Made by a program: the position numbers and the translations under genes | Part shown: positions 3 through 62,567 of the stretch, piece after piece | Layout of the letters: each line of letters starts with the position of its first letter | Numbering within the stretch: the first letter of the stretch is position 1 | Notes under the pieces: generated by a model | The model's database searches: none | What the model was told of the DNA's origin: nothing | What the model saw: only the letters and a program-made list of their open reading frames with translations | Source: an uncultured Planctomycetales bacterium | GTDB lineage: Bacteria; Omnitrophota; Gorgyraeia; Zapsychrales; Fredricksoniimonadaceae | NCBI GenBank assembly: GCA_964483785.1 | Contig: CAZACW010000001.1 | Coordinates: 50,967-114,966 of the forward strand | Length of the DNA: 64,000 nt | Reading direction: 5' to 3'

Positions 3-3000
3 TTGTTCATTCACAGCTTCTGCAATTTCCCGCTGACGGTCAAATTCCGCATAATCTGCCTCGAGGGACATTTGGGTGATAGGCTCAACGGTCCTGATGA
101 TGAAATGAATACTGCCGAATTCTATGCCGATGATTTCATCCGGCGCCAGGGCGCGGGGGCCGTGCGGCGTATCAATATGGATGACCAGACGGCCATGGTC
201 GATATCTTCTCTAATATGCGCCCTGGCTTGGTCTTGGTCTGGCTCAGGTATATTGACGCCCTGCATGATCAGTCTGTAATTACCGTCATCCCTGCGCTCA
301 ACGCGGTCAAGAGGTACAGGTAGATTGGCATCCAGAGGACGCTGCAGCCTTTGCGCCAGCCGCTGCCTTACTTGCGGGCCAATGACGACGCTGATCGGCC
401 TTGCGGGAACTTGCTGCTGTTGCCGACGGGACCGGGCTTGCGGCAAAGAACGCGCCATCACCGCTTCCACTTTATCCAGCTTCAGATGAGCATTTTCAAA
501 TTCCCTTTGGGACATGAAGGTCTGAGCTTCAGTCACCAGAGAACGGACATCGGCTATACGCCCCATGGCCTCATAATTTTCATGATGGAAATCCAGCAGA
601 CCCGCTTCCCATATCAACATCTCATTATAAAGCTCATTGAAACGCCGCCTTAATTCCCCGCGTTCAGACAGGCTTAAAATTTTATAGATAATGGCCGCAA
701 GATACATGGACCCGAAGAGCAGGCCCATGAAGACAAACAATTGGTTCTGGCTTAATAAAAATTTCCTCGTGTCCGCGGCAAAGGTGATGATGGCCGGCAG
801 CGGGGAAATCAAGAACCAGATGACAACAGGGCTTGAAATGGACAAATGCCGCAGATACTCTGATCGGATGCGCTGGATCTCATGAGGCCTTAAAAGACTG
901 TGTAAAGGCAACCCCAACAATCTCCCTGCCGGCGCCAGCAGCCTGACGAAGAAAGCCACGGGAAGCCAGAGCCGGTCGGAAATGATCTTGGCTATCCAAA
1001 GCACTGTCAGGACCATGGCCTTCAAAAGCGCTAAAATGCCAAATCCCGATGAGAAAGACGGCGGATTCCTCTCAATTAACGGCCCCCAGAACCAGGAATA
1101 TAATTTGCCGATCAGCGCTACGGTCAACACGGCTGAAACCCAGGCGGCTATTCCGCCCTGCCTCATCAGCCCGGCCAGCACCGCATAGAGGAGCCCGACG
1201 CTCAGCCAAGCCGCGAGATGAGTAAGAGGCTCCAGGATTTTCTTCTTCCCTTCCAAATGCCCCAGCTTCACCGACATGGTCAAGGACCCCTGCATCGCGC
1301 CTACATAAAACATAAGGCCTGAAAGAAGCAATAATACGTTTTTCTCGTCGCCCAAGGAAATGATCACCAGAACGCCTGAAACAAACAAGGCCAGGCCCAT
1401 CAAGTGCGTTGTCCTGTTATTGACCAGCGGATGGGCGCTCCTGCCGCGGCTGTCCTCGGCAAAAACGGTGATCCTGTTCATATCAACACCCCTGAAATCC
1501 GTAGCATTGGCCCCGGACAAATCAAATTTCGGAGACTGCCTGACGCTTTGGGAAAGGAATTGGATCATGGACAAGGGGCTGAACAATATAACGTCCTTGC
1601 CGCGGGTGGAAATCCACTGGCTTAAGCCCAGGATAAACCCGCCGGCCCAAAGCGCAATGATGGTCCAGGACATCATCTCTGATGGGGTCATGGTCAAATA
1701 TCCCATGTCTATCGCGTATTTCAAGCCGAGCCAGGTCACGAGGCCCGCGACCAAACTGTGTTTATTCTTGAATCCGGCGCTTTCCATGTAGGCGGCCAGG
1801 CCCGCAAAGGTCAAAATTTGATTAAAAATAAGGCCGATGTTCCAGAGAATCATGTCCACCCCGGTAAACGGCAAGAAACCGAATAAAATGGCAATCGGGG
1901 TCAAGGCAGAATTTAAAATCGCATAGAGGACAAACCCGAAGAACCGGCCGTTGCTTTCGCGCACTTCCTTGGCTGTCATGCTGATGGGGCCGTAATCCGA
2001 GATCTGCTGCATAATGGGACTGCTTTTCATCTGGACATATCCGCCGGCCCAGCGCGGCGGGGCAATATATAAATCTGAGTGGGAATAGGTTTCGCGGATC
2101 TTATGCGGGAAGCTCTTAGACTGAATAAAGCTCGGGCGATAGCCCAAGGCGATCATGGTATGCGTGGCCTGGGTCACGGCCCAGATGTCCTCAGAGATCC
2201 CCGGCGCGTGCGGGGCAAAACCAATGAGACCGTAGTTAACGGCCCAGTATCTCTGGTACCAGCTCAGACGGCTGCGGTTTAAGGAAGTCAAGGGTTTCAA
2301 GGTGGCATCCCGGTGCATGAAGGCCCGCACGCTCATCCCATAAGTATTGCGCAGCTGGTTCTCCCAGCCGGTCCCGATGGATTCGCCGGCGGCCCCGCCG
2401 AAATTCATCACCCCGCGCAAAATGGCGCGGTGCCCCTCTTCGATCAGGCGGCTGTATTGGCCCATGGGCGTATTCACGTTGGTGGTGCCGCGGCCTGGCA
2501 CGACAATCACCAAATCCTCATTGCCGCGCAAATTCATCAGATCATAGTTATGTTCTTCGACGTCGTTATTGACCGCGCCGCGGTCAATGATCTTCATGGT
2601 CGTCATGCCCAAAACAACATCCGCGGGTGCGGCATCCATGCCTGCCCCGGTCAAGGCCTTGTTGCCAAAGGCCGTATGATCGTGGATCGTGAACATCCTT
2701 CCTTGCCTCTGCTGCATGCCTAAACTCGCATTCATGGCCTGGATCAATAAAGCGATCTTTTCCCTCTGGCCGATTTCAGATACAGGGTTGGTATTTTCAC
2801 GGCTGGGGGCAAGGCCTTCATCCGTATATTTATTGCTCGCGAAAATGACCACATTTTCATCGCCATGCAGAATTTCGTTCAGGCCAAAATACATATTCAG
2901 CTGGGCCACAGACAAATCCTGCGACTGGCCCGCGGCGGCGGTCATGGCCACAATCCAGCGGCGCGCATGCCAGGCATCCAAAATCTGCCGGCGGCTGTTG

Positions 3001-6000
3001 GCAGGGACATACACCCGGACATTCCTGCCCAAATTGACATCTGCAGGAATGGGACCTTCCACGATCTGCCATGGATGCAAAAGGGTCATTTTGGAATTGA
3101 TCTCCGCTTCGATCAGGCTTTCCAGGCCGGCCCTCAAGTCAGGATGACGCCCGTGCAAATACACGGCCGCATCATCGCCCCAGGCCACCAATTTTTCAAA
3201 GCGTTCCATAAGCACGTCAGCGGATATTGAATTCAGTCCCCTGAGGGCGTCGCCGCCGATGATGACATATCCGTGGACCTGCCTGCCGCGGCCCGGCCGC
3301 AAGGGATTATTGAATTCTTCGAATCTTTGCTGAATTTCTCTGCGCTTTAATTCCTGCACCCAGCGCGTCATTCTGTCACTGATGGACCTGCGGGCCTGCG
3401 GGAAATAAATAATGGCCCACGCGGCTATGACGCCTCCCAACACAAAGACATTTTGGACCAATCCCTGCGTTCCCATGACGGCCAGGCCTAAGGCCATGGT
3501 CTGCAAAGGCCATTTGGCGAAGATGGACATGAAATTGTAAAAGCCCATGGTCTGGGCGTAACGCACCAGCCCTAAAGCGTTAATCAGCATAAAGAGGGCC
3601 AGAAAGATCCTGACGTAGTCCCATCCGCCGTCCATCGTCGCATACACCTGGGAGAACCATCCGGAAAATACCGCCGGAACAATCAGATAAGAGCCGACGG
3701 CGATGAAGGCCGCGATAGAGGCGGCGAAATTCACCACGGTCATGCCCCAGGCCAGCCAGCCCTGTTTGGCCGCCACATAAATCGCGGCCTTCATAAATTT
3801 GGGCAAATAGGGCAGCTGCCTCAGCCAGGTCCCCCAGCCGCCGCCGGTCAAGGCCGCTGGGGTGAAATTGTATTTGAAGACCAGCCAGGTGAACGAAACA
3901 GGTTTTGCCTCTGTGATCATCAGCATGGCCCATCGTCTGAATACGCCGCCGCGGGCCATGTTACGGCTGACCATGGTCAAAGCAATGGGAAGAAGCAGGG
4001 AAAAGAATTCCAAAGAGACCCACACCACAAATACGCCCCAATTCAAATAGGAGAGATAAACGCTGTGCACCTCTAATTTCATCAGAACAAACAATAATCC
4101 GGCCAGGGAAACTATGCGCACGGCCAAGGAAGACCGCACGGCCAAATGGAAAATACGGTTCCATCCCGCCTTGATGGTCAAGCTAAAAGGAGCTCTCCTG
4201 GAAGGATGCCGAAGATGCTGGGCCATCCACGCCATGAAGGAGAGGCCGATCCCCGCGGCCATCCCCCATAACGGCCAATTCAGCAGATTAATCAGGCCGC
4301 CCGCATTCATCTGCTGCCACATGGTGCCAAGCCCGGTGATCATCGGCTCTCCGCCGTCGAATTCGTTTTTCAAGACCAATCCTAAGGCCAGGCTCAAAAG
4401 GAGCCAGGGAGCATATTTGATCTTTTCATTGAGTATCCAGTGGACCGGACGATGGTCATGATTGGCGATAAACTCCGTCATCATGCCGGTAAAATGCCGG
4501 AAGGAGCCTCTTTGTGCATGGAACACGTTTTCAAACAATTCACCGATGAGCGTTAAATCAACGCCGGGCAGTCTGGTCTCAACGCCAAGCTCTTGGCGGT
4601 CAGCGGCTTGAGGCGCAACAGCTTGACGGCCCAGCAAGCCATTCACCACCGCCAATTCATCGACCCTTGATCCGTCCTGGGCCACATAACGCCAGGCCGT
4701 GGCCTGCACGATGTTGACCAGGGCCCTGACTTGAATGAGATCATACGTTGTCGCTCCCACCGCCGGGACCCCGATATTCTCAAAGACCTGTTGCAATCTT
4801 TGTCCGGCCCTGTCGGTCCGGTCAGCGCCTTGGATGAGCTCTTCCCTTAAAAGCCAGGCGAATTCCTGGTTCATCATCATCAAGGTGTCCCAGGTGGTGT
4901 TGCTGTCAAAGGAACGCCCGTTGCCGCTGCCGCGGTTGGCCTCCAGGGCCACCCGCCGCGCGATCAAAGCCTGCATCCAGACATAAACCAACATGCGATG
5001 CATGAACACCGCGCTGTCTTCTTCTGTGATGAAGCCGGCCTGCCTCGCGTGCTTCAAATATCCATAGGTCAGTATGAACACATTCTTGAGCTGAGTATCG
5101 AAATGGAAATCAACAGCGCCATCCAGCAGGATGATGCTGCCGCCTCTTAAGGTCGGCAGATAGATCTCCTGCCAGGCCGACACCGCCTCTTCCATGGTCC
5201 CGGCATCCATCAACCGGTTGCGGTCTTGGCCAACGGTTTGCGCGGCGCTTTGTTTGGCCCGCCGGTCATAGAACAAAATTTTAACCGTCATGGTCAGGAG
5301 GCTCCAGGCCAGGATCAGGCCTGTGAATCCTTCGATGACCAAAATCAAGATGGAGGATTCCTTGGCATTCACATGCAGGGCAAATTGTTTTTGGGGCAAT
5401 ACCACCGCTGCGCGGCTTTCCATATCCGTCAAAATCCTGGCCGTGGCTGCCAGGGCCGTTCCACCGTCGGATTTGTCCCCTAAAGGCAGGATATCATTGT
5501 CCATGCCCGTTGAAATGCCTTTTTCATGGATCATTTCCCGGCGGTCAAAATCAGCGGGCAGGGCAAAGACTGGATACCGGCCCTCAACGCCTAGGGCATT
5601 CAGCGACCGGACGGCAAAATCCCTGCCCGGCGCATATCCGAGGGCCTGGGCCGCGGAAAGATATTCGGCCGTTGTCTGGGAAAATATCACATCGCCCTGG
5701 CCGCGCGGGGTGCTGGTGTCCAGCCCCTGCTTGCCGTCGATGCGCACACCGAAAATTTGATAGGCCCGCTCCAAAATTTCCTGGCCGTTGAGACCCAAAT
5801 CGTTTGCGATACGTGCCGCCGCGATATAATCACGGGCATCCAAATCCAGGCGGGTCCCGAAGAAACGCTGACCCTCATTATTACTGCTTTGGATCTCATC
5901 CTGGCCGGAGATGATCACCCCGCGGGATTCATAATTGTGTTTGACGTTGGCCAGGAGCCACCTTAAGGCCGTGTCCCTGACCTTGCTTAAATCCTGGACC

Positions 6001-9000
6001 TGGGCCGCGGTCAAAAGGCCCTGGCCTTGAATCAAGGTGTCCCGCGTTTCCCGGAATACAACCGCATTGTCCAAGGTCCTCATATGAAGCGGATTGTCCT
6101 GGATCAAAATTCCCGCGCGGCGCACGGCCTTTCCCGACCGGTCTTGCGCAATGCCGGAGAGCCCCTCATTGGGGATGAATTGATGGGTGAAACTGTGCGT
6201 TAAGTTGGTCAAGAATTCCGACGGTATTTGATTTTGGATTTGTCCGTTAGCAGCCTGGACATACAGCGAGACCAGATGGATGAGGCGCGCCTGCGCCGCC
6301 GGCGCGTAGGCGGAGGTCGTGTAATTGGTGTTATAAGCTTTGGATTCCTGGGCGTCCCTGGTCACGGCATTGTAGCTGCTGCGCAAAGGCAGCGTGCCTG
6401 CGCGGGTCACGTCCATGTAAAACTGGATGACACCAAAAGCCAAATCCAAACGCCCCTGATCGATCCAAGCTTCGAGTATGTCCATCTCTCCCATGGTTTC
6501 AACGATGGGGCTTGCCGGATTGGTCCTGAATAAAAATGCATCCGGGTCATATTGGTTTCTGACGACATTGCCGGCTTGGGCCCCGATCAGCGCATTGATC
6601 AAAGCATCGCGGGAGACGGCGATCTGGGCGGCTTCCCCTTGGATGGCCGGAGGCAAGGGGCGGCTGGACACATGGGGGAACAGCAAGGACGACCCTAAGA
6701 AGCTGGTGGAATATCTCGATTGTTCCAGGGCATCGGCCAATTGCAACGCCCTGTCCGACGTGGTTTGGTCCAAGTCGACCCCATTGCCGAAAATCCATTG
6801 TGAAGGCAGGGAAAGCGCGCTGTTGGCCGTGTTATTCTGGACCCTGCCAAAGGTCGGATGTGAAAGAAATTTCAGATCACGGCCGTAGACTTCAAAGGCC
6901 GGGACCTCATATTCGCCGTTTAAAAATACCTGGGTGCGGGACGATTCCAGGAAAGGATTGCGGATGCCAAAGACCTCAATTCTCCCCGGGGCAGGACGGG
7001 CGATGAGATTATATTCCAGGGTATCGCCTGTATGGCTGTTGAGCACCGCAAAGGGATCGCGGCGATGGACTAAGTGCCTTCTGTAAATTTCCACATTGGT
7101 GCTTTTTTCCTTCTGGCTGGCCTGGATGCTGTGCAGGCCATCGTCAAAATACATTTCGCTGTAATGATTGTCCTTCTCCACATAATGAATGGTCCTGCCG
7201 CCGCGGGAATCGTCACGGATAAAGGCCTTGACGCGTTTCAAAAACGCGGTGATGATGATTCTTTCAGGGGTGCTTTGGGCGGTGTAGACATTGATCCACA
7301 CCTCGCCTTTTTTGCCGCCGGAGACCGGCTCGACAAAGATGGCCTTGTCCTCCAGGATTTGGCCGAGGATTTCGCCGTTGCCCTCTTCGCTGGCATTCAC
7401 GATGTCCCCTTCATGCGTGGCGCGGCTGATCACGGCTTCCCAATCCTTGGGATTCAATCCCTGCACCCTGCTTTCAACGGCCTTGATGTCCAAGACCTCG
7501 ATATTTTCCTCCACCAGGATCACACCACCGGAGAGCCTGCCGCTATGGACAAAGACCAGATTGCCGCTTCGGATGGCCGCCAGATTTTTGCCTAAATTGA
7601 CCTGGCCTGAAAATCTCCCTTCGCGGGAAAGATTAATGACATCGCCCTTGCCCGTCGTGCGGCTGATCACCGCCCTTAAAACTCCGCTGCTTTGGCCTTC
7701 CGGCACGCCCACGAGCCTGCGCAGGTCCATGGTGTCTTTCTTGGCGCCGATGGCCATGACCGTGTTGTCCAAGCGTGCCTCATACAAGCCTGTCACCGTC
7801 ACTTCACCCTCGGCATCGCGTTCCTGGGCAAAGCTGGCGCTGTTGTTTTTGGTGTTGATTTGACCGACGGCATTGCCTTCGGCGGCCGTGTCAATGATGT
7901 CTCCCTTGCCGGTTTTACGGCTGACCAAGGCCCTTAAATCCTCGCTCTTGTACCCGTCAGGAGCATTGCTGACCTTGCGCACATCAGCCCTGTCCTTGAA
8001 GGCTCTGATTTCCACGGTGCCGGCGTTTAACCCGGCCTCGTACAACGCTGTTACCGCGGCCCCGTTTTGATCATCCCTTTCTTCAATAAAGCTCGCCCTG
8101 CCGGCCCCTTCATTGAATTGTCCGACGATATTGCCGTCCGCGGCCAAGTCCACAATATCGCCCTTGTGGGCCTTGCGGCTGACCGCGGCCCTTAAATGAT
8201 CGCTGTTAAAAGGGGCCGGAGCGCTGATCACCGGACGGACATCCATGGTGTCGATTTTCTCTTCAATCACGACCCGGCCGTTCTCCCGATGGGCCTTGAA
8301 TACTGCGCTGACGGTCTCATTCTTTTGGGCATCACGCTCTTCTACCAAGCTCGCCCTGCCGGTCTTGCCGTTGAATTGGCCGGCAATCAACCCGGCCCTG
8401 CTGATATCCACCAAATCGCCTTTACCGGTGGTGCGGCTGATCACGGCTTTGATGTCCCGGCTGTTCATGCCTGAAGGCAGGCCCTGGACCCCGATGATAT
8501 CAACGGTGTCTTTCTGCTCGCCGATGGTCAAGATGCCCTGGTCAAGAGCGGCCTTATAGATCCCGGCAACCGAAGCCTCGCCTTGCTCATCGCGCTCCTG
8601 GATCAGGCTGACAGTCAACTCTCCCGTATACGTGTTGGTCACGATCTGGCCGGCCACGATGCCCATGGTCCTATCGATGATGACGCCTTTGTGCGTTGAC
8701 CTTCGGATGGCGCCCCTGATTTCATGGCCGGCTATATCCGACGGCGCTCCAGCCACGGTGTGGATGTCCACGGTATCAAATTGCGGGCCGACGGTTTTCT
8801 GGTTCAAATCGATGGACTGCAAAGGATGCGGCTGATCACCCATGTCAAATTCCACGAAATCCCCTTCAGGCGTATCGACGCTGACTGAGCCTATTTCCAC
8901 ACTGCCCTTCATGATCCGCGCAGACTCGGTCTTGTTTTGGCGGTCCACATGAACGTTCAATATCAAACGCTGGCCGGCTGTGGTCAAAGCGGCTGGAATT

Positions 9001-12000
9001 TGTCCGGTGACCTCGCTGTTGATGGAATACCCTTCCACATCTCCCTGGTTCTGGGCATTCACGAGATCGCCGTGCTCGGTCAACAGATGAAGTTCGCTGT
9101 CATAGTAATAAACCGGCTGGCGGCCCAAGGGGGCCAAGGGATTGGAAAGCACCGCGTAGCCCAGGCGGCCTGAACTTAAATAGGCCCTTGGATAAAAGCC
9201 TAAATTCTCCTTTCCCGTGCGCAGGTCAACGCCGAAGATGCGGTCCTTGTTGGTCCTTAAATCGTGGCGCCGGATGACCAGGGCATTGACCACCCCCGGG
9301 ATATCGATGATGCCCAGCATGTCCGAGGTGGCGATCTTGGCACCCGCCTGGCCGTCGATCACCTCAAAAATATCGCCGTCCTCAACGTGTTCCATTTCCA
9401 TGCGGCCGGGAATGCCGGTCAAATACAGCCGGGCCACACGGCCCTGTTCGAAAGTATATTGTTCGATGGCGATCACATCGCTGTCCTTGATGCCGCGGTC
9501 CTTGATCTGCTGATAGGTCAACAATTCCGCGTGCACCGGGGCCGCGGCTGTGGCGTTAAAGACCACCACCAAATGGCTCTTGAGATATTCATTGATATAC
9601 TTCTGGGCCGGCGGTATCAGGGTCATGGTGGCGGCCTGCACCGGCGAGGTGGCGGCTTTCTCGCCGGGCTCGAGGCCGATCACCATGGTCTTTAAAGGCA
9701 GCCACCCCTCGCGCAGGGCCTGCGGATCATCATTGGGTGTCGGGAAGGCCTGCGTGGGCTCTTCGCGGTCAAACTTGCCGTTGCCGTTGGTGTCCTTATA
9801 ATACAAATATTGCTGACGGCCGTTGGTCTTGATGGGCAGATGCAATTGCAGCCAGCCATAAGGGGAATTCAAGGCCTTGACCAATTGGGCCTTGGTCAAT
9901 TTCATCAATTTAGGCTGGTCCAGAGGTTTGCCGCCGGCATCCACATGCACGGCCATGGCAAAGCCGATGGGCTGATTGTCCGCAATACTGTCCCAGGGTA
10001 CTTCAGGGACCTGGGGCCTGACCAGGGGCTGAGCGCGCACAGGGATTGTTATCCCTTCCGGCATGGCCATAGGATCTTTGCCGGCCACAGCCAAACCATA
10101 ATAGGCCCCGGCGGAAAGGGAGGCCGTGGCTGACTTAGGCGTGCGCCAGCCATGCATGGTATCCACGTAGGCGATACTGCCGTCGGGATGCACCGCATAC
10201 GGCGCCACCCACATATTGTTTTCCAATTTAAAGAACCTGCCCAAGGACTCCATCAAAAGCCTTCTCTTCATTTCATAAGATGCAGCTTTGTCAGAATCGC
10301 CCAAACGGCCGGCGATCTGACCGGCATGGCGGTATAAGAAGCTCAGCTGGGACGACCATTCCATGGAAATCGCCGTGTGGCGGTTGCCGAAATCAATGCC
10401 GAGCAATCGGCCGTTCTCATAAACTCCGGCGCGCTCTTCGAGGGCGTTGATCATCGCTTCGATCTCCTGGAAGCGCTCGGCCGCGGTGGCCCCGAAGAAC
10501 GGATCTTCCATCATTTCATCGACAGGCGCCCAGGTGGTGGTGTCTGAGGCAAAAAATTCAGGGCCGTCCTTGACCCAGGCGCCGTTTTGATAATGCGCAC
10601 CGCGGGAGAAGGTGTGCGTCCGCTTATCGTACATGCCCCTGATCCAGATATAGGCCTTGTCGCGGGCGGACGCAAAGCGGTCGCGGTCAGCCTGGGTGGC
10701 GCCGAAGCGGGCCAGTTTACGCAGTAAATTCAAGGCACTTTCATTGTTTTCCGTGGATTTCAGGTTAAAGAACACATCATTGCGCTGGCCTGGGCCTGCC
10801 ACCTGGCCTTTGGGACCGAAACGGATGCCGCCGTCGGCATCCTGCAGTTGGATCAAAAAGTCTGCGCGCTCCTGGGCCAAGATCAGGTTTTTCAAGTCCC
10901 TGCCCTGCAGATACTGGTCCAGCCCCGCGGCGCCGATCCAGGCATTGGGGCCTGCCCCGACATTCCAGGGCCATTTATTCCACCAATCGCCGTATTGTTC
11001 GCCGAAGCCGGCGACCCGGATATCGTTGAAAATCCCCTCCTGGATAATGCCTAAATTGCCCTGCGGCATCACCTGCGGATGGGTCTCACCGTCGGGGAAG
11101 CGGAAGCCGTTGTAATAGGTTTCCAAAATTTTTGCGGCTTTGCCGCCTTCCAAAATCACGCGCAGGCCGTTATCATAGGTATAGGACACAAAAGACAGGT
11201 CAAGATCGTTGAAGTAGCTGGGTGACATCCCCGCGGCCTTGGAATTCCTGTCGAAGAATTCGGTGTATTTCTGGCCCGCGGCCAAATTAAACTGCAGATC
11301 ATTGGACGGCGCCGGCGCGCCGAATTGGGCTGGAATGATGGGGTTGGGAACATCCAACAAATGGCCGAGCCCAAGACCTGGTTGATTGGCCGCCAGCTGT
11401 ACTCCGGTCAACCCTAAAGGATAAATGATCCAGTTGCCGTTGATTCTGGGCGTGGCTTCGAGCTCACCCACCGCGAAACGGAGTGGCGCAGGCGGCGTAT
11501 TCATCCCGTGATTAGACATCATGCGCAAAAATTCATCCATGTCCTGATGGGCGCGCCGGATCTCCCCTTCCATGCCTTGGGTGGACATTTCGATGATGAT
11601 GGGGAAGCGGCTGGTGAATTCAGGGCCGATCCTTCCCGTGTCCTTGGGCAGGACGATCCTGGCCTTGCCTGAACCCAGCGGCACCTTGGTGTGCTCGTCC
11701 ACCTTCAAAAAATATCCGAACACCGACGGCGCGTTTGCGACCCTCGGCAATTCTTCGCTGATGATCCCTGCCTCGTCCAGGTCTTCCTGGGGAATATTTT
11801 CGATGGCAAAAACAAGGGTGTCGTGGATCGCTTCCCATTGGGCCGCGTTGATGGGCTTGGGCATGTCCCCGAAGAACCTGGCCACTGCGTAGCCGGACTG
11901 GGCCTCCTGCTCGGTCCTCATTAATCTTAAGGAAGGCATGAATATTTTCTTGCCGTCCAAGGACATCAGCCATTCCACGGAAATGGGCCCCTTGGGCATT

Positions 12001-51000: not shown

Positions 51001-54000
51001 CCGCCGCCTGATTTTAAACTGATATATTTTTGCACCGCATTGAGGATTTGAGGATTTTGATTGACGAACTTGTTAATATCGGCGTCAGACCTGCCTTCCA
51101 TGGAACCATAATCAACATGATTAGGATCGCCTGCAGACAAATCTCGATATTGTCTCCACAATTGTTTGACCTGTTCAGCGAAGGTATGCGGAGAAACCTT
51201 GGAGCCGTCCACAAAAGACGCTCCCTTGATGTCCTTTAAGCCGACCGCTCCTCCCTCTAAGGTCAAATTAGCATAATCATGCAGGCCCGTGAGAGTATCA
51301 AACTTACGGTAAAGAGGGTTGCTTTGGTCCAGTTCTTGGACGCCGGTGGTGACACTGGCGTATTTGCCGTCCTGCAGTTTGACTGAGGTAAAGTCGATTT
51401 CCTTGACCCCCACGCCAGCTGCCATGGGTTTTCCGTCAGATGTGCCGGTCAATCCGATAAAGTGATAATCATCGCTGTTGGCTCTATAAAACCCCGTGCC
51501 GGAAACATAATCGACATTACCACTGCGATCGTTGAAGCCCATGGTGCTGCCATCGGTAAGCCCAAGAAAACTGTGAATGACTCCACTGCCGCTTAAGTCC
51601 CTTACGCCGGCCAAATTAAAATCTCCGCCAGTGGCATTTTGGATGACCTCCCCCCTAAAATCCTGTTCCGCGCTTCCGGTGAAGTTACTACCCAGGTTCA
51701 AAATCAAATTTTGGTTCGTAATTGTACTGTCAGGCCGTACAATCCCGGTCGGAGTGGTGTTTACCGCGGCTGATGTTTCGGTTGCAGGCGCCGCAGAAGC
51801 ATTGGCCTGCTGTCTGGCTTCTTCCGCGGCATTGTGCGGAGCATTCTGCGCACCCATAATATAGCTTTGATCTTTTAAATTTCTCGCCACAAGTTGGGAA
51901 GTGCCTGTTGAGTTGACAACGATGCCGGAATCAACTCGGGCCCAGTTGCTGCCGCCATCCACCGATACATCATTGAGCCCTTGTACGGCAATGGGCATGC
52001 CGTTTTTAAAATCAAGCCTTGTGAATCTAGCAATCACATCTTGGCCGATGCTACTATACGTATCGGCATAGGCCTGGGTTCCATTCACACCATGGTAACT
52101 TGATATAGGAAAGACCGCGGCCCCTTTATCCGCAACAGAGAAACCGTTTTGATCAATGGTCACCTGACCAAGCTCCCTTAAAGGTTGATTGTTTTGGGAT
52201 GAGGCCACCGCATCGAAAACAGCATATTGCTGTTTCCCATTTGAATCCAAAACCGGTTTTCCGGTTTGGGGATTGATGGTCGGCTGGATTTCAGCGATAT
52301 ATTCGTTAATGCCCCCGGCAAATGAAATTTTCAAGTTATGGTACATGGGTGAAAACGAAATGCCTTGGTTTTCAAGGGCCTGGGAGCCTGATATGTTATT
52401 AGGAATGTTTGCAATCAGCGCCTGACCATTGGTATTGTCTTGGGATACGGTGCCTTCATAAATATGGCTATTGCCGATTTGGATCGTATTTTCAAAGGAT
52501 CTAAAGGGCATTGAGCTCGGAGAAGACGATGCGTCTCCATTTGGTATTTGGGTCTGTCCCGGGACCCAGGCCGCGCGGCTTCCTGATGCGGCAAGGATAT
52601 CTGTAAACATGGAGGTGCTGTACTTATATTCCCCAGCCGCCTTTGTCGCCAAATCCAACCGCGTTCCCGTGACGTTTTGGCTGAAGGGGGTATATTCGCC
52701 ATTAAGCTGTAAACCTTGAGAGCCCTGTCCATACGTCAAACCATTTAATTTTTCATTGTTATTGGCATCAATGAGATAGGTGGGATTGTTAAATTTCATG
52801 GACATCAAGTCTGTCCCCTCCAGCAGTCCCACGCGATTGACGTTCAAAAACGCTCCTTGATAAAGTCCATTGACGCCTTGCTGTCCAAAGCTTACAAAGG
52901 AGCCTGTTTGGGTTGAATAATCCCCTTTTTCCGTGCCAAAAATGGATTGATCTGTCCCAATCGGAATCAAGTTGGGTTTTTTAGGATTTGTTCCGACATC
53001 CCCAATAAAAGCCATGGCTCCAATACCAAAATTGTTATCCTGGACGGTGACCTTCCCATCGGCGGGTGTGGCAAGATTAAATCCGCTGACCACATATTCC
53101 AAATTACCATGTAATCTGTCAGCCTGAGCATTGGGAGTGGAATAAATGTTGTAGTTGGCGTTTGATAAAAATTTGATTTCACTGGACTTATCGGTTCCGC
53201 CGGATACAAATTTCCAGGCGTCCCCCACCCCGGCAAAATAAGGAGAAGCGTTGCCTCCATTCAAGTCCCAGGTTATGCCTGCTGATGTTATTGGGAATGA
53301 AAAACTTTGATTTCCATTTGTTGTTGTTACCTTTCCATTTGCGCTATATATCATCGGAACCATGACAGGGCCATTGGGCGTCATCACAGTATAAACAGAA
53401 GTATTTCCGATTAAAGTGCTGTTACCGGATTTGACATCATTCGTTTGCAAACTGCTCTGTCCTAAGGTGCTTTCACCAAAGGGCGTCACTGCTGTCGAGT
53501 TTGATAATGGTGTCAACGCACCTGGCTTTCTGGCGTCCGCATCATTCGCTTGGACTAAATACATTAAATTGTGGCCTCCTAAGAATCCCGGGAGGGCGCT
53601 TACTTGAACATAGGTTTGCCCTGGTTCGGTCGGAGTGACCTCATGCTCATCTTCAGGCCGGCCTGAGCCATTGCCGTCAGTTCTTACAACCCCGGCATTG
53701 ATGAATTTTTGACGAATCGATGATCCATAATCAGGGTTAGGATTGTGAAGTTGAAAATCAACCCATTGAGTATATGACATAGGTTCGGCACCCATGCCCT
53801 GGCTATTGAGATCATGCTGTGCTGCAGCGTAAATTTGATATTTTTGAGGTGATAAGTACTGCTGCTTTAATATATCGACCTCGGTTATGTTGTCCGGGAC
53901 AGCGTCTGACATTGAAACTGATCCATCCGGATTGGTGGTTAACGCACGCGGCTTAAAAAGATCGGCATATTGTGCGCCAGTTGATGGTATTGAACTGACT

Positions 54001-57000
54001 CCTAAGATTCGGTCCAACTCGTTATCCTGAGTGGCTAACTGAGTCGGAGGCTCTGATAAAGGATTGCTCTCGACTTCTGTTTTATTGATTCTTGCCGCAT
54101 CGGGGTTCGGCGCATTGATGGGAGCCGGAACTACAATGTCCGGCCTTCCGGGGATTGCCGTGATGGAGCCTGGAGGGTATGAGATTTCCACTCCACCCGG
54201 TTTTGCTGCTTCAACGAAAGGGGCCGACATTATCGTTCTCGTAATGGTGGTACCAGGATTGCCACTGGTCGTCATTGTGGATCCAGTGTTGGCAGATGTC
54301 GCTGCAAGCGATATTGAATTGCTCGTTAAATTTTGTGAGGCCAAATCTGTAGACAACAACGGCAAAAAAGTGCCAAGCAGGCTTGATCCGCCCGTATAAG
54401 CCGAAGCTACGGCTGATGGACTGAATGGATTTAAAGAGCTTGTGGCATAGTCAAGGTCTGATCTTCCACCAATTGGAAGTGAAGCTGTGGATATAACGCT
54501 GTCAGGAGATCTCATCAGACTACTGGCTTCTTCTTGGGTCATGGACTTTCCTGTCAAATACTGTCTCATGGCCATCGCACCACTTAGAAAATCAGACTGG
54601 TCAATCATCAATGTATTGGGGGTGACGACCCTCAACATAACAGGCGCTCCGATTTGTATTTTCTTAATGGCGTTGATATGAGGTGGCGGTGGCGGCGGAT
54701 GCAGGATATTTTTTGCCCGCCGATCCAGAAAAACTTCATTGAGCGAGGCCGGCATGCCCCTGCGGTTAAAATTCACAACGCCTCCGCGTCCTTGGCGATA
54801 TCCGGCCAAGACGCCGTTGAGTAAAAGGGCATCAAAGGTCAAGGCCTGATACCCTGTAAGATTATTGATGGTCACATTGCGAAAATCACCGATTAACACC
54901 GCATTGGGAGAGGTGAAATCTGAAATTTCGATATTGGCACGCTGAGTGCCTTGGGTGACAATAGTTGTGTCATGCGTATCTAAACCAACGGTTAACGTCC
55001 TGCGGTCAGGATTGCCCTGAGGTGACGCACCGCCTCTTTGTCCCTTGTCAAGGACGGTCTGGTTTAATATGAGCGGCGCATTCCCGCCATTGATCAAAAG
55101 ATACGGCGAGCCGCCTGCTTCAAGGCCCGCGCCAAGACCATTGGTTGAATCAAAAACTTTGCCCGGCCCCAAGTCCAGAGCGCCAATGGAAAAGCTTAAG
55201 AAGGTCTTCTTGCCCTGTGGAGATTCTACGACGGACAAGTTGATGTCCTTCAAAATGGAGCTCATGTCTTTGGGAATATTTTTGACGCCCTCAAATTGTG
55301 AGCCGGCCACATCCAAATCCACAAATTGCGTGGCAAGATCGCCGGTGGGCTTATCAATGACCACGCCGTCGCGGCCGATAGAAAATGTCTTGCCCTGCGG
55401 GATCCATGCGCCGTTTCTTTCCGCAGCCGTCCTGATCCTGCCTGTTGTAACATAGTTATTGCCATTCCAATACCCTTGAACCAAGGTGGTGAATGACGGC
55501 AAGGACCCGCCCACAACAGTCAATTTTTCATTGGTGAACAAAGGTTTGGTGGAAAGGCCAAGACCCTGTTGGCTGTCGATCGTTATGTCCGCGACATGAT
55601 CGCCTTTGGAGACACCCAGGTAATACAGATCCAGACCCCCTCCGAGGGGAATGTCCTGGATCGTGCGGTTGGCCATGGGAAACTTGCGCGGCTTGATGCC
55701 TGTATTTTTGCTGGGGCTGTTTTGAATCTCCTGGCCGGCGGAGTTGGGATCAATATTGCCTTCCTTGGGGCCGATGATGATATGCCCTGCCTGGTTTGTA
55801 AAAATATTCACGTAATTTTTCGTGATCCCTAATAAGGCAGGCACAAATGCATTGGCCCCGGTGGAGATAATGTAAAGATCCTGGGAGCTGGGCGTTAACG
55901 CCTTGTCCAATACCCAGCCCGTGGATTCATTGCCGCTGGCGGTCCATCCGGGCAATCTACCCTTCGGGGCCGCGATGCCCGCGCCAATGTCCCCATAAGC
56001 CGAGAACGTGATTTCATTGCCATAGGCCCCTTTGTCCGTAAATGAAGTGGCATTTTCATAAGTGCGCGGCCGTCCGGCGTAGCTCATGGGCATGATGCTG
56101 TTTTTGTCTCCGCCCCTGATCCCTGCGCCCCACATCCATTTCCCGCCAAAATAAATGCCTTGATTTTGGACCTTCTTCGTAATCGGTGTGGCGGCAATCT
56201 GGTCCGGATCAAACCACCAGGCAGCCCCTTTGGAAAAATTATTGCCCGTGATTTTACCGTTGTAAACATACCCCGGTTGCGAAGATGCATTAACAAGATC
56301 AAGATTGGCAAGATACCATTCACTTATGCCGTTAAGTACGCTGTTGGTCTGGACCCCATTGATGTCCGTGATATAACCAAGCTTTCCATGGGCCGTTGAA
56401 CTGATCGGCGCAGGCGTTGATTCACCCCCCTTGGTCGGCTTCATTAAAGTATCAAAGGCCCCCCCGTTGGCGACCAGAACAATGCCGTTATCGCCGTTGC
56501 TCAGACGCCGGACCGCGGCCCCGGTGATGGCGGCGGCCAGGGCCCTGCCTTGCTGGGCCTCCACGCGCATGCCTTGTCCAATAAGTTCCGCATAAGCGGC
56601 GACTTCCTTGTCTCCGCCCAAACCATTAGGACGAATGGCCGCCAACCCTGATACCTTGGCAGAATAGTACGACGGATCCTCGGGAGATCCAACCCCATTG
56701 GCGCTGGGTGATCCAAGCACATTGGCGCTAAAGCCCACCCATCCGCGGGTCGGGACCCCATTGATAAGATATCTATAACCATCGACCTTCATCGCCTTGC
56801 CGCTGAGCGTTATGCCGCTGCAAGCGCCGGATGCCTCGGCCTTGCATATGCCTAATTCCATTTGGTTATTGGCCCCTTTTTGGGCGCCGTATTGAAAATT
56901 GGGTAAAAAGTACATCAGCGTTTGCCTGACGGAATCATCCATGTAATAAGGATAGGTCGACTTTCGAAAATCTTGTGTGATGCCGGAATTGGCAGAATTA

Positions 57001-60000
57001 GCATCCGTATAAATGGGCACAGGCTCATTATTCTGGTCGAGATTGACGATGGCCCCTTCTCCCGGAGCCAGGGACCCTGATTTGCCGTAAGCTGATAACG
57101 TCACATAAGAGTTCTTTGAAGTCTCGTCTGTCCAAGTATAATCTTTGGCCTTGTCGAGTTTATAATACGTCGGCTGGGCAAACGGCAGGGCAAAGGCCAC
57201 AACTCCGGTCAAATTGGTGGCCGCGACGATATCAGCCTGTTCCAATTGATTGCTCAAATAATTGATATTGTATCCCTGCTCGCCGATGGAATGGGATTGA
57301 AACAAGGAAAGGACAAATTGGTCATGCAAGTCTTGATCGGAAGGCGCCGGTGTGAAGGTCAGGATTCCCGGTGAAATAAGCCCGCCGATGGTGTGGCCGT
57401 CGCCGGATTTAAATTGCGTGATGACATTGGCCCTGTTCTTGTTCATGGCGTCCCATTGGCTGTCCAGGGAAGCCGCCCAATTAGCGGTGATACCGCTCAT
57501 CTGGTCCAAGGTATCTGATAAATTGACAAAATTTTCGATCGTGGGATTTCTTGTATATTCATCGATCAAAGGGACTCCGTTGATGCCGGCAAAAAATGGA
57601 ATTATAGTCGAAGGCGCCGGTGATCCTGTCATAGTCGTCAACGTAGCTAATCCATTGTTTGTTCCGTTTAAAGCCACGGACGGACTTAATCCTGAGACCG
57701 GAACACCTAAGGCCAGTTGAAATCTGTTCCACCAGGTATTGTTGGGGGCCTGGACATTTTCTCCATTGACAGAGGCCTGGATACCCGCTGACAAAACGCT
57801 TGAGGCGGCCATGACAATGGCCTGATATTGGGCCAATTGATAGGTGTAATTATAGGAATAGCCCGGATTGTTGGCCGCCTTCTCAGGATCGTACCTGCCC
57901 ACAATGCTGTTGGCCATCAGGCCCAGGCCAAATCCGATCAGGGCCTTGGTCAGGGCCGGGGCCATTTCTTTGAGCAAGCGATTACTGGACTCAGGCTGGG
58001 GCGGGCCGTAATATTTGTCGTATTGATACAGGGCGAAAGTTGTGGCAAGGCCGCTGACCCCGAGTCCGATCGCGCTGGAAAGCCCATTATTGGCTTTGAC
58101 GCCGGCTGACGAAGCAAGTAATCTTGCCCCCATGCCGGCCAATTGGCCGGCGAGCATAGGCAGAAGAGACGAGGCCGCGCTGTTCAAAATATTTTGCAGG
58201 ACTGTTGAATTGGCCTGCGCGATGACCCTGTCGATGGTCCTGTCGATGATACTGCCCGGAGTATTTCCAGCGCCGTTGAAAACGATCTTGCCTTCTGGCG
58301 TGATGCTTATATTGGAAGCATTAAGAGAGACACCGGCTTTGGCTGCTTGGGCGACTACGTATTGAATCATCCCGTTTTGATAAATACCCTTGGAAGCGTT
58401 GAGGGCCGCGTTCTGGGCATCAGCAGGTGAGAGTCCTTGGGCCACGGCATTGGTATAGGCTGCTTGGGCCGTTGAGTTGTGATCGATAAAGGTCGATGCC
58501 GCTTCCTCTGGTGTAATGCTGGCGGCGACAGTGCTGTTAGAATTAACGACGGCCGTGGCGACCCTTGAATCCATCGCCACCGCACCGGTTGGGTCAAGGG
58601 GCGGCAAAGGCAAATTGGGATCAAGGGATGGCGCCGCTGCTTCGGGATGCAAGGAGTAATAGGCGTTGACCGCGGTCGTCGCGCAACTTGGGCATTGGTT
58701 CGATAAAACCATGGCCTGGGCCTTGCCGACCTCCAGCTGAACATCGCTGTTGATAGCAGCCTGTCCTGCTTGCTGCGCCATGGTATGGGACAAGATGCCT
58801 TCAATCCCCTTTTCCACGATATCAACTGTTACTGAAGCCACCTTGGTGGCCACCACATCCGCAATAACCAATATCCCCTGCGAGAGGATCTGCGCCGTAT
58901 CACTGCATGGCTTGCCCGGCGGACAGAATGCATTGTTGACTACCTTGACCAATTCAAGTTCAACCACGCCCTTGACCGCGCCAATCACCAGACCTTTGGC
59001 AAAGCGGCCGGCAAAGGTGCTGAAGAAGCCGCTGCTGGCTGTTGATGCGGCGGGCGGCGGTGTCGGTGTTGGAGGAGGGGTTGAAGCCCCCGCCCCTTGG
59101 GCCCCTCCAGCCGCGGCCTGCTGGGCGTTGGTAGATGTATTGCTGGTGCCGCTTAAAAAATCACCGATTGGTTTAATGATATTGGTTTGGATCCAATTCC
59201 ATGCCTGGTCAAAAGCGTTTTGGATGGGCGTGATGATATTGGTGTTGATCCAGGACCCGATGCTGTTGGAAGCATTTTGAAGAGGCGCGACGATATTGTT
59301 TGCTATCCATGACCCCACATTGCCCGCCACCGAGGCCCCGGTCTCTATAGATCCCGCGGCTTCTGTGCCGGAGACTGCAGTGTCCCAAGTGCCGCTGTCT
59401 ACGTACCCGCTGCTGTCCACACTGCCGGTCTGTTCAAACGTCACTGAGTCGCCCCAACTGCCTGTATCAACATATCCCCCACCGCCCCCGCTTGCACCGC
59501 CGACGCCGCCCAACGCTACGCTAGCCGCGACTGTAATCGCCGTAGACAAAATAAAGGCCTCATCCGGACTGCAGGCCTTGTTCATCACGCAGATGGTGGC
59601 CAAATTCTGCAAAAGCTGGCTCAGGGTAAGGATAAAAATGGCTTTGACCATCCCGACCACGCAGCCGGCAGGCCCGCCCATTAAACAGCCTATGACGATC
59701 GAGACAACTATCATCACCAGCTGCAGTGCGATCTGACTGCCGGACATCAGCCCCGGCAGGCTTTGGGAAAGGTCGCGCCATTTATCGCCCCAGACAAAGG
59801 CTTGCAGAGCTTCCGGAACTTTTTGGTATTGGATTCTTGTTTTTGCATCAACGGCGCTGAATACAAAACCATCCGCCCTTTTAATAAAATCCTTCGCATC
59901 CACAATGCGCGGATAATCCAGGTCCGTGTAATAGACCTTGCCGCCCGCGGCTTTTTCCACATTCACAAAATGTTCATCTTTAAAGTGCGCGATGAAAGGT

Positions 60001-61045: not shown

Positions 61046-61155
61046 AGCTAAACAATTACAATAGATTAACGTCAGTTCTACATAATGATAACGCTGTCTT
61101 CGAAAAGCAAGGTCGTGTTCAACGTACCATTTGGCCCTGTCCTCGTGACCTGTTT

Positions 61156-62565: not shown

Positions 62566-62567
62566 AA

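Follow-up and report, generated by a model that had tools for sequence, protein, structure and literature searches.

The window analysed here, a stretch of DNA of 64,000 nucleotides, very probably holds a genuine single gene of at least 60.7 kb for a giant, membrane-anchored envelope protein of an uncultivated Omnitrophota bacterium, directly downstream of a Tad/type-II-secretion-like operon. Its reading frame is confirmed and open far beyond chance, and it belongs to the class of giant ORFs already known from the tiny, uncultivated Omnitrophota. What is new here is the unannotated tail of the protein, which according to structural models looks like a cellulose-synthase-type machine for making sugar polymers.

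The first-pass annotation had claimed one uninterrupted minus-strand ORF of more than 60 kb, running from an ATG at 60695 to position 3, at least 20,231 codons long, with no in-window stop and incomplete at the window edge. A six-frame recount without length or completeness filters agrees with this on every point: the minus-strand stop-free run is 60,699 nt long (plus-strand coordinates 60701 to 3), no in-frame stop was found when one was looked for between 3 and 60692, and the codons sit, as had been said, at 3k..3k+2, the last whole one being 3-5. All three stop codons, TAA, TAG and TGA, are missing from this frame, and each of the five remaining frames of the window carries 618 to 1,207 stops. 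From the base composition 0.047 stops per codon would be expected, or about 955 over the ORF (log10 of the probability of no stop, -425), and shuffling the window 100 times gave stop-free runs of at most 271 codons, whichever the frame. Spot translations in the annotation had looked protein-like, and the frame is so throughout: the coding signature is unbroken in every 1,000-codon bin, GC3 differing from GC1 and GC2, and the remaining frames are laden with stops. The ORF and its upstream end comprise the following features.

3 to 60695, minus strand: giant ORF of 60,693 nt, 20,231 codons from ATG 60695, with the 3' end beyond the window.
60702 to 60704, minus strand: in-frame TGA which closes the frame upstream, the first start codon after it being ATG 60693-60695.
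60746 to 60775, minus strand: TTTGCA-18-TATAAT, which resembles a sigma-70 promoter by consensus only, some 50 nt ahead of the ATG.

The start at 60695 is supported because the N-termini of homologues align at its column and conservation extends upstream of the next ATG, at 60593. The product has at least 20,231 aa and a mass of about 2.2 MDa. It is essentially non-repetitive, nearly without internal repeats; inside the ORF there are no long nucleotide repeats which might hint at a collapsed assembly, and scanning the window for Rfam families, tRNAs and tandem repeats gave nothing relevant within it.

Giant ORFs of Omnitrophota have been described by Seymour 2023 (PMC10066038), West-Roberts 2023 (bioRxiv 10.1101/2023.11.21.568195) and Nielsen & Lui 2026 (bioRxiv 10.64898/2026.06.07.730766), and, as referred to in the first of these papers, by Kizina 2022. 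Is such a gene a rarity? The first-pass annotation called giant genes extremely rare, which holds for bacteria overall but not within Omnitrophota, where they are routine: 94% of 176 complete genomes encode a protein of at least 10,000 aa, and the record protein has 147,155 aa (Nielsen & Lui 2026, 10.64898/2026.06.07.730766). With 20,231 or more residues, the present protein is mid-sized for the class. Members of the class have a C39 (or S8) peptidase by the N-terminal signal, an embedded divergent SecA and many TM helices (PMC10066038; 10.1101/2023.11.21.568195), and in their loci T2SS/Tad-like genes precede the giant ORF and pilZ and sugar-uptake genes follow it. Tubes of beta-helix have also been reported for the class. 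That the window might belong with them had been raised in the annotation and is borne out by an ORF of more than 10,000 aa, N-terminal matches to Omnitrophota proteins, a C39 domain near a signal helix, divergent SecA domains, about 20 hydrophobic helices and an upstream T2SS-F/Tad gene. Shared with the class are also the length of tens of kb, the small number of annotated domains and a fast divergence beyond the N-terminus. Two subtypes of West-Roberts 2023 were considered and rejected. The Archaeovorin subtype was set aside since the protein has no GT, methyltransferase, GH or NUDIX Pfam matches; the GT-like and GH-like folds described below are seen by structure prediction alone, whereas those of Archaeovorin are Pfam domains. 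The Dockerin-type subtype was set aside since PF00404, PF18884 and dockerin/TSP3 repeats are missing and there are hardly any internal repeats.

The placement in Omnitrophota is by homology only, because the window contains no ribosomal marker. The N-terminal 400 residues match 14 protein clusters, all of them partial proteins, at up to 63% identity, and the named ones are mostly Candidatus Omnitrophica, with one Elusimicrobia. The same 400 residues match 35 GTDB loci, mostly Omnitrophota MAGs and again at up to 63% identity; nine of the 35 bear the automated label 'uncultured Planctomycetales'. The relative ORFs reach at least 3,500-3,900 aa wherever about 10 kb of DNA was at hand, and in 32 of the 35 loci the frame is open up to the end of the retrieved DNA. 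Neighbouring genes of the giant ORF end at standard stops, and upstream of it lie the following two.

62965 to 63876, minus strand: gene for a T2SS-F/TadC-like platform protein of 303 aa (Pfam T2SSF 4.5e-18), upstream of the giant gene.
61354 to 62565, plus strand: gene for an AAA_14/DUF4143 ATPase (Pfam), between the T2SS-F gene and the giant gene.

In at least 26 of the 35 related loci the giant ORF is immediately preceded by a T2SS-F homologue (55-77% identity), and relatives have two T2SS-F genes and small proteins with class-III signals ahead of the giant ORF; in the present case the remainder of the locus falls outside the window. Most of the closest homologues of the T2SS-F protein come from Candidatus Omnitrophota MAGs, a few others bearing the automated labels 'Planctomycetales', 'Elusimicrobia' or 'bacterium', and the exact protein was found on one contig only, a Logan contig of 1.1 kb from SRR12313480. 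The AAA_14/DUF4143 ATPase has a homologue at 74% identity in one relative only (L035), with weak matches of about 24% in two others, and its GC3 is 0.47, against 0.78 for the T2SS-F gene. It is a lineage-specific insertion and probably not part of the system.

Two tiled Pfam passes left about 94% of the giant protein without a match and found only C39 and SecA, and a phmmer search of the whole protein, in five chunks, against PDB sequences gave SecA as the sole match. The topology of the protein was read from a hydropathy scan only, which gave 22 Kyte-Doolittle segments; as these include two overlapping pairs, there are about 20 hydrophobic helices. From the N-terminus to residue 17,772 the following regions can be distinguished, all on the minus strand.

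60531 to 60587, minus strand: first hydrophobic helix, residues 37-55, a signal peptide or signal anchor (hydropathy and alignment).
59922 to 60230, minus strand: Peptidase_C39 domain, residues 156-258 (Pfam PF03412, E 6e-9).
59502 to 59732, minus strand: three hydrophobic helices after C39, residues 322-398 (hydropathy).
42696 to 59498, minus strand: Gly/Asn/Ser/Thr-rich, low-charge region, residues ~400-6,000 (composition), no Pfam match.
20496 to 42695, minus strand: helix-favouring, highly charged region, residues ~6,000-13,400 (composition), which houses the SecA module.
27675 to 30878, minus strand: complete SecA-like ATPase module, residues ~9,940-11,007 (Pfam, PDB, motifs).
18801 to 20456, minus strand: two hydrophobic helices around a proline-rich low-complexity spacer, residues 13,414-13,965, where GC3 is locally low.
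7380 to 8792, minus strand: the only internal repeats, residues 17,302-17,772, about five units of ~85 aa with 29-44% identity (family D1).

The sequence ending in VSWAFGYNP at the first helix is conserved across relatives in the alignment of N-terminal homologues. The C39 domain scores 36.2 bits against a cut-off of 22, and by alignment its catalytic Cys/His/Asp triad is conserved: of the 14 homologues compared, at least 90% have C157 and all have H242 and D258. Pfam found no ABC transporter domains across the giant ORF, which is therefore unlike the exporters of double-glycine peptides with their N-terminal C39; in NCBIfam there was only a weak partial match to the peptidase part of an NHLP exporter. 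The region of residues ~400-6,000 is probably beta-rich and extracytoplasmic, as its composition suggests; the side of the membrane on which it lies is uncertain, because the number of N-terminal helices is even.

The SecA-like module contains all four SecA Pfam domains, its parts being SecA_DEAD (4e-70), PP_bind (7e-11), a P-loop NBD2 and the wing/scaffold domain SecA_SW (1e-22); the PDB match to SecA has an E value of 2e-85, and local alignments with canonical SecAs show 38-50% identity. The motifs TGQGKT, DEVDQVVIDEGRTPLIIS, GATGTA, TNMVGRGKDI and RIDRQTIGRTARGENPG are intact. We take TGQGKT, DEVD...DEGRTPLIIS, GATGTA, TNMVGRGKDI and RIDRQ..GRTARGENPG to be the SecA Walker A/B and helicase motifs of the DEAD motor. 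Judged by its sequence, the module is an internal SecA paralogue with intact ATPase motifs. It scores well below the cut-offs of the NCBIfam SecA equivalogs (NF009538, 462.6 bits against 814; TIGR00963, 443 against 800) and is therefore divergent. With the housekeeping SecA and SecA2 it shares the four Pfam domains and the motifs of the DEAD motor, but it is embedded in a giant protein, has an insertion of about 80 aa within NBD2 and is without the SEC-C zinc motif (PF02810 not matched). The SecA of the class was described without a wing/scaffold domain (West-Roberts 2023), whereas the domain is present here, at the E value given above, so that the SecA module of an Omnitrophota giant protein can keep it. 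A homologue search with the SecA kilobase returned canonical SecAs of about 850 aa and no giant relatives; it says nothing about a clade of giant SecAs, because the canonical proteins swamped the matches. The client of the module is presumably the giant protein itself, as West-Roberts 2023 (10.1101/2023.11.21.568195) likewise proposed for the SecA of giant proteins.

What, then, is the last part of the protein, for which the Pfam passes gave no name? Towards the C-terminus we distinguish the following segments.

10068 to 11285, minus strand: segment of residues 16,471-16,876, with 42% identity to an internal part of P0173, an Omnitrophota protein of 7,464 aa.
5556 to 6638, minus strand: predicted (alpha/alpha)6-barrel, glycoside-hydrolase-like, residues ~18,020-18,380 (AF2 and Foldseek).
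441 to 5351, minus strand: polytopic membrane module, residues ~18,449-20,085, with ~6 TM helices, a cytoplasmic GT-A domain and ~8 TM helices.
1986 to 3278, minus strand: GT-A catalytic domain of the synthase-like module, residues ~19,140-19,570 (alignment, secondary structure, pLDDT).
3 to 440, minus strand: charged tail, residues ~20,086-20,231, past the end of the 3.4-4.6 kaa homologues.

A cassette of about 2,200 residues, which begins at residue ~17,880, is conserved in 260 protein-cluster representatives, and barrel and synthase-like module occur together in about 28 representative proteins. The AF2 model of the barrel (md4059395c43e) has a core pLDDT of 80-95. With this model Foldseek gave 127 matches at E <= 1e-3, nearly all of the 50 listed being (alpha/alpha)6 enzymes; dextran dextrinase (E 7.5e-7), GH100, GH37, GH76, GH116 and BcsZ were among them, and the matches listed include GH15-like and GH8 enzymes as well. 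A six-hairpin barrel fold is thus predicted, and the invariant residues E220, Y258, Q285, N360 and D476 (numbering of the modelled segment) are candidate catalytic residues. The motifs GPNAW and STENN suggest a second alpha/alpha barrel at residues 16,471-16,876; we do not claim it, because the hhalign comparison of residues 16,441-16,900 with the barrel family was not significant (probability 3.7%).

For the membrane module, the predicted fold is that of a processive membrane-integrated glycan synthase of the BcsA/CesA/hyaluronan-synthase kind. In the predicted structure the GT-A domain is inserted between TM helices in a channel-type layout, and residues 18,841-19,900, as modelled by AF2, have long helices in agreement with the TM segments from hydropathy. 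The Foldseek TM-scores of the module are low, 0.2-0.46. In the family alignment D19371-R19372 (LDRNA) is present in at least 90% of the sequences, and E19502-D19503 (GISEDIW) and R19548-W19549 (PRWSGG) are invariant. BcsA/BcsZ, CesA, hyaluronan synthase and chitin synthase were not matched by sequence, either through the Pfam GT2/cellulose-synthase families (with E up to 1 allowed, none of 35 family members had a match) or in PDB (a family profile of the C-terminal module gave only noise), and NCBIfam has no match for the module. In comparison with BcsA and its kin, DRN stands where DxD is expected and FPRW, without the Q, takes the place of QxxRW; TM helices are also more numerous in the module, which forms part of a polypeptide longer than 20,000 aa and is not accompanied by any PilZ domain seen within the window. 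A term search of two papers on the class found no BcsA-like module in giant ORFs.

The cassette is not confined to giant proteins. Proteins of 3.4-4.6 kaa, for example P0149 from Verrucomicrobiales and P0143, carry it as their C-terminal half, where barrel, TM cluster, GT-A and TM cluster follow one another as they do here, with ~27-33% identity to the giant protein across about 2,000 residues. They have their own signal peptide, lack C39 and SecA and end about 15 residues past the module; the tail of the giant protein continues past this end, and its ORF therefore runs beyond the window. The cassette was also found as a gene of 1,658 aa which overlaps the end of a separate gene of 2,489 aa. 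We tentatively hypothesize, in the knowledge that this may well prove wrong, that the cassette constitutes a family of processive glycan synthases which is new and distinct in sequence, here fused in cis to a private SecA, a C39 peptidase and a surface protein. So understood, the family would range over Omnitrophota giant proteins and at least one Verrucomicrobiales protein.

Does the giant protein act in one piece? It may be a polyprotein or a fused operon whose product is cut, for instance by C39, into separately acting units, a reading which we consider possible and somewhat doubtful; in its fuller form, held with the same reserve, the units would be an N-terminal anchor-peptidase, a beta-rich surface part, a SecA-like motor and a hydrolase-synthase unit. 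The free-standing occurrence of the cassette in the 3.4-4.6 kaa proteins and in the 1,658-aa gene speaks for it, as do the conserved C39 triad and a relative (L003) whose first 1,251 aa have an ORF of their own, so that the single-polypeptide state may not be essential; cleavage was also raised as a possibility by West-Roberts 2023 (10.1101/2023.11.21.568195). Against it, there are no known cleavage sites, and the frame, unbroken in 32 of 35 relatives, implies selection for co-translation. The polyprotein reading is compatible with that of a single giant gene, which it refines rather than replaces.

For the late membrane module, an alternative to a glycan synthase is a transporter or structural anchor which shares a GT-A-like fold. 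The missing sequence match to any GT family and the change of DxD to DRN would agree with such a role, and NCBI names two of the homologues, P0164 and P0172, 'MFS transporter'. We regard this alternative as rather unlikely.

A different question is whether the gene as assembled exists in one organism. It is improbable, in our opinion, that the ORF is an in-frame composite of sequences from at least two related Omnitrophota populations, each with a giant gene, so that no single cell would have exactly this protein. Such a chimera is suggested by the composition: GC3 ranges along the gene from 0.29 to 0.73, being ~0.6 over aa 1-1,700, ~0.47 over aa 1,800-9,000 (minimum 0.29), a block which falls mostly within the region of residues ~400-6,000, and ~0.7 over aa 12,000-20,000. 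In addition, an exact 49-mer from the left edge of the window found no match in genome and JGI metagenome contig collections, and public assemblies often break in such genes, many of the homologues being 'partial'. However, the GC3 transitions, near window positions 55,000 and 25,000-33,000, are gradual across thousands of codons, not abrupt, and a similar drop over the first 3,500 codons is seen in five independent relatives (L007, L016, L028, L029, L034). No long repeats or near-identical segments are present to seed a false join, at least two in-frame joins without a stop would be required, and the order of the modules agrees with the published full-length examples, in which an N-terminal C39 is followed much later by SecA and TM clusters (10.1101/2023.11.21.568195). 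That the run is no gene at all, owing to chance, compositional bias or a reassigned stop, is refuted by the open-frame statistics, the standard stops of the neighbouring genes, two domains far above curated cut-offs and homologues conserved at the protein level.

Taking the single giant envelope protein as the preferred reading, we infer its function as follows. The N-terminal anchor and the later helix clusters would insert the protein in the inner membrane, and the SecA-like motor, in its long charged cytoplasmic stretch, would spend ATP on threading the protein's own extracytoplasmic segments, for which the Gly/Asn/Ser/Thr-rich residues ~400-6,000 are the best candidates. After export, the C39 peptidase may cleave either the product itself or a partner. 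From a sugar-nucleotide substrate the synthase-like module would build a polymer, which it would push out through its own helices, and the adjoining barrel would trim or remodel glycan. Together with the adjacent pilus/secretion system, the whole protein would serve to form a surface coat and to attach to host cells or attack them.

If the glycan-synthase reading is true, one polypeptide would export itself and also spin a polysaccharide coat or attachment matrix for an episymbiont on its host, and PilZ proteins, which have been reported downstream of genes of this kind, could regulate it in trans. The predicted barrel and cellulose-synthase-like enzyme would therefore bring polysaccharide production, besides degradation, within the role of such proteins. 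At issue is a bacterium whose genome measures about 1-2 Mb and which would have to make, export and use a protein exceeding 2 MDa; for most of the length of each giant Omnitrophota protein no function has been assigned. The giant gene adds no new category to those known, but through its late cassette it offers a testable handle, since the homologues of 3.4-4.6 kaa, among them one from Verrucomicrobiales, are much smaller proteins in which to study this cassette.

We recounted the six frames of the window without filters and found the minus-strand frame free of stops from + position 60701 down to 3 (60,699 nt), with 618 to 1,207 stops apiece in the remaining five frames. The first-pass annotation had claimed a single stop-free frame from 60695 to 3, and this holds, no in-frame stop having been found in the recount. 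The limits of the giant ORF and the genes next to it are as follows.

Giant ORF and neighbouring genes (window coordinates)
3-5, minus strand: final whole codon of the giant ORF in the window
60693-60695, minus strand: ATG start of the giant ORF, the earliest start codon downstream of the TGA at 60702-60704
60702-60704, minus strand: TGA, upstream in-frame stop of the giant ORF
61354-62565, plus strand: AAA_14/DUF4143 ATPase gene, between the T2SS-F gene and the giant gene
62965-63876, minus strand: T2SS-F/TadC-like gene (303 aa), same strand as the giant ORF

From its ATG the giant ORF runs for 20,231 sense codons with zero stops in the window. About 955 stops would be expected from the strand base composition (0.047 per codon; log10 P(none) = -425), and in 100 window shuffles the longest open run in any frame was at most 271 codons. 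Because GC1, GC2 and GC3 are unequal in each 1,000-codon bin, and because the two alternative sense frames and the three antisense frames are stop-rich along its whole length, the entire ORF is coding-like.

The N-terminal 900 residues matched 14 protein clusters, all partial, with 63% identity at best; the named ones are mostly 'Candidatus Omnitrophica/Omnitrophota bacterium' and one is from Elusimicrobia. A scan with the N-terminus alignment against one genome per GTDB species gave 35 loci, mostly in Omnitrophota MAGs; nine of the 35 loci carry an automated 'uncultured Planctomycetales' label. The homologous ORF is open to the end of the fetched DNA in 32 of these 35, reaching at least 3,500-3,900 codons wherever about 10 kb of DNA was at hand. 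Even in the closest relatives, similarity to the giant protein fades past about residue 2,000. In one relative, L003 (JGI Ga0105164_10000021), the C39-bearing N-terminal part is its own 1,251-aa ORF (10001-13756), followed after a 285-nt gap by a gene of at least 4,628 aa (14041-23756). This split may be natural or a sequencing error; early stops likewise occur in loci L019 and L008.

In at least 26 loci the gene immediately upstream of the giant ORF is a counterpart of the T2SS-F gene (55-77% identity), and the gene tables of two relatives list two T2SS-F genes and a run of small pilin-like genes ahead of the giant gene. The AAA_14/DUF4143 gene resembles a mobile insertion: just one of the 35 relatives (L035, 74% identity) has a close homologue of it, and its GC3 (GC at the third codon position) of 0.47 is much lower than the 0.78 of the T2SS-F gene. 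We also observed a 56-nt direct repeat (62567-62622 and 62936-62991, 89% identical), each copy of which contains a GC-rich palindrome (AACCACCGCAACCCCGGGGGTTGTGGTGGTT). One copy comes after the stop of the AAA_14 gene, and the other overlaps the T2SS-F gene at its 3' end. A duplicated terminator or the scar of an insertion could account for the repeat. The AT-rich intergenic region at 61155-61253 holds a tandem array of about five copies of a 17-nt unit. On the minus strand, upstream of the promoter-like site of the giant gene, it also carries a perfect 15-bp hairpin with a T run after it.

Could the long frame be something other than one giant gene? A polyprotein or fused operon is suggested by the coincidence of its module boundaries with gene boundaries in other loci, and such a reading is compatible with a single giant gene. 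The GC3 variation along the ORF, from 0.29 to 0.73, might reflect a chimeric assembly or recombination of a segment, but GC3 changes gradually and five independent relatives (L007, L016, L028, L029 and L034) show a comparable fall over their first 3,500 codons, so that we regard a chimera as very unlikely. In detail, GC3 is about 0.6 over residues 1-1,700 and about 0.47 over 1,800-9,000, with its minimum of 0.29 at 4,800-5,100, and about 0.7 over 12,000-20,000, dipping to 0.44-0.48 at 13,500-14,100.

The giant protein itself has few recognizable parts. Two tiled Pfam passes over its 20,231 residues (1,000-aa chunks, then chunks offset by 500 aa) yielded a Peptidase_C39 domain and a SecA module and nothing else, and thus about 94% of the protein is without a Pfam match. 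When the whole protein was searched with phmmer against all PDB sequences, SecA was the sole match (E 2e-85). A hydropathy scan proposed about 20 candidate membrane helices, which are clustered.

Features of the giant protein (residues counted from the ATG at 60695, minus strand)
37-55: signal anchor (hydropathy)
156-258: Peptidase_C39 (Pfam, E 6e-9, exceeding the curated cut-off)
322-398: three-helix cluster (hydropathy)
~400-6,000: low-charge region rich in Gly, Asn, Ser and Thr (composition)
~6,000-13,400: highly charged, helix-favouring region containing SecA (composition)
~9,940-11,007: complete SecA module (Pfam)
~10,756-11,007 (window 27675-28430): SecA wing/scaffold domain PF07516 (E 1e-22)
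13,414 and 13,947: two helices, either side of a proline-rich spacer (hydropathy)
18,449-19,096: cluster of about six helices (hydropathy)
19,586-20,004: cluster of about eight helices (hydropathy)

All 14 aligned homologues have H242 and D258 of the C39 domain, and C157 is missing from just one of them, a sequence truncated at its 5' end. The whole protein has just 13 cysteines (0.06%, an extreme depletion), at residues 157, 337, 345, 369, 375, 591, 597, 668, 671, 1284, 1292, 3640 and 11196, 11 of them within the first 1,300 residues, which makes the retention of residue 157, the catalytic cysteine, notable. No long or near-identical nucleotide repeats occur within the giant ORF, and protein self-similarity is almost nil apart from about five diverged units of ~85 aa (residues 17,302-17,772, window 7380-8792; motif ...ISR.T.KGD..D....), immediately upstream of the barrel domain described below.

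The SecA module comprises SecA_DEAD (4e-70), the preprotein cross-linking domain, the second P-loop domain and the wing/scaffold domain. All of what we take, from established knowledge of SecA, to be the motor motifs were found (TGQGKT, DEVDQVVIDEGRTPLIIS, GATGTA, TNMVGRGKDI and RIDRQTIGRTARGENPG). The module scores 463 bits against the NCBI cut-off of 814 bits for SecA proper, and it lacks the SEC-C zinc motif, whereas the best-matching canonical SecAs have it. It is a divergent, probably active paralogue. It keeps the wing/scaffold domain, unlike the SecA modules of giant proteins described by West-Roberts 2023 (bioRxiv 10.1101/2023.11.21.568195).

For the final 1,200 residues in the window we found homologues at 31-39% identity, and 260 relatives of this late module turned up when 1.84 billion cluster representatives were searched with a profile. 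It is C-terminal in a group of proteins of 3.4-4.6 kaa, including P0149 (named Verrucomicrobiales), and lies inside several partial Omnitrophota proteins that are longer (5.5-7.5 kaa). Similarity to module-bearing proteins covers residues ~17,880-20,082, and the giant ORF runs at least 140 residues beyond the endpoint of the shorter ones. No sequence model recognises the module. The E-D of GISEDIW and the R-W of PRWSGG are among the positions invariant in 35 diverged homologues, and the D-R of LDRNA is kept in at least 90% of them. ED and QxxRW are motifs of processive family-2 glycosyltransferases, and the conserved E-D and R-W recall this pattern, the Q of the second motif being absent here (FPRW). 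An AlphaFold2 model of residues 18,841-19,900, built on the 35-homologue alignment (mean pLDDT 75, pTM 0.80), gave comparison values of 17.4 for plant CesA, 16.8 for a GT2 mannosyltransferase, 16.7 for CslF6, 16.0 and 15.6 for hyaluronan synthases and 14.5 for chitin synthase. The best 39 Foldseek hits were all membrane-integrated processive synthases, Fks2 among them. The alignment is longer than a GT-A domain and thus takes in part of the helical channel as well. The assignment as a putative synthase depends on two motifs and a predicted structure, and the module has an altered DxD motif.

About 28 of the representatives also have a second conserved domain, 450-800 residues upstream of the synthase-like module. 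Its model (residues 17,851-18,460; core pLDDT 80-95) has a core matching (alpha/alpha)6-barrel carbohydrate-active enzymes: dextran dextrinase (E 7.5e-7), GH100 invertases, GH37 trehalase, GH76, GH116 and BcsZ, the cellulose-synthase partner. A fusion to fucose-pyrophosphorylase and nucleotidyl-transferase domains occurs in one family member. Because of this fusion and the predicted synthase- and hydrolase-like folds, the late cassette looks like a hydrolase-plus-synthase unit for some polysaccharide. Further upstream, residues 16,471-16,876 (window 10068-11285) are 42% identical to an internal part of P0173 (Omnitrophota, 7,464 aa); their GPNAW and STENN motifs recall alpha/alpha-barrel hydrolases, and a profile comparison with the modelled barrel family gave no significant match. 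In locus L004 (Logan SRR7989281_13408, 2572-14977) the module forms a 1,658-aa gene, and a 2,489-aa gene ends 41 nt into it; this arrangement suggests either a frameshift-split large gene or a real two-gene cassette. Two multi-thousand-residue homologues, P0164 (MBF0490321.1) and P0172 (MFH1282160.1), are named 'MFS transporter' by NCBI; this conflicts with the predicted BcsA-like fold and is probably a misannotation.

How might such a protein work? We hypothesize that it is anchored in the inner membrane and that the SecA-like motor in its charged cytoplasmic region would export its own extracytoplasmic stretches; SecA-driven self-export is likewise proposed by West-Roberts 2023 (bioRxiv 10.1101/2023.11.21.568195). 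Processing of the product or of a partner could fall to the C39 peptidase. The synthase-like module would polymerise and extrude a glycan, which the barrel domain would trim, and together with the adjoining pilus/secretion system the protein may serve in coat formation and in attachment to, or attack on, hosts. We can only speculate that downstream pilZ genes, if present here, could regulate the synthase in trans, in the way that BcsA is regulated in cis by its own PilZ domain.

The reading of this locus as a real giant gene of Omnitrophota type, incomplete in the window, is supported. Seymour 2023 (PMC10066038) found ORFs over 20 kb, poorly conserved and with few annotated domains, in most Omnitrophota genomes and linked them, alongside Tad systems, to a life that depends on a host. 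Also cited there is a 39,678-aa protein of Velamenicoccus archaeovorus whose peptides are up three-fold in attached cells. West-Roberts 2023 (bioRxiv 10.1101/2023.11.21.568195) described 46 genes over 90 kb whose products have an N-terminal C39 close to signal peptides, SecA DEAD and preprotein-binding domains of divergent sequence, and numerous TM helices; a conserved T2SS-like locus precedes these genes and pilZ genes follow them. Nielsen & Lui 2026 (bioRxiv 10.64898/2026.06.07.730766) reported proteins of at least 10,000 aa in 94% of 176 complete genomes, with a maximum of 147,155 aa, the two largest domain-architecture clusters being a C39 group and a SecA_DEAD group. Our giant gene agrees with this class in all testable features and belongs to it rather than to a new category, although it has none of the Pfam domains defining the Archaeovorin or Dockerin subtypes of West-Roberts 2023. 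Its size is ordinary for Omnitrophota. The terms 'cellulose synthase' and 'glucan synthase' are absent from the texts of West-Roberts 2023 and Nielsen & Lui 2026, and the BcsA-like module therefore appears to have gone unremarked there. The structural identification of a conserved putative hydrolase-synthase cassette in otherwise unannotated sequence offers a testable lead on the role of these proteins.
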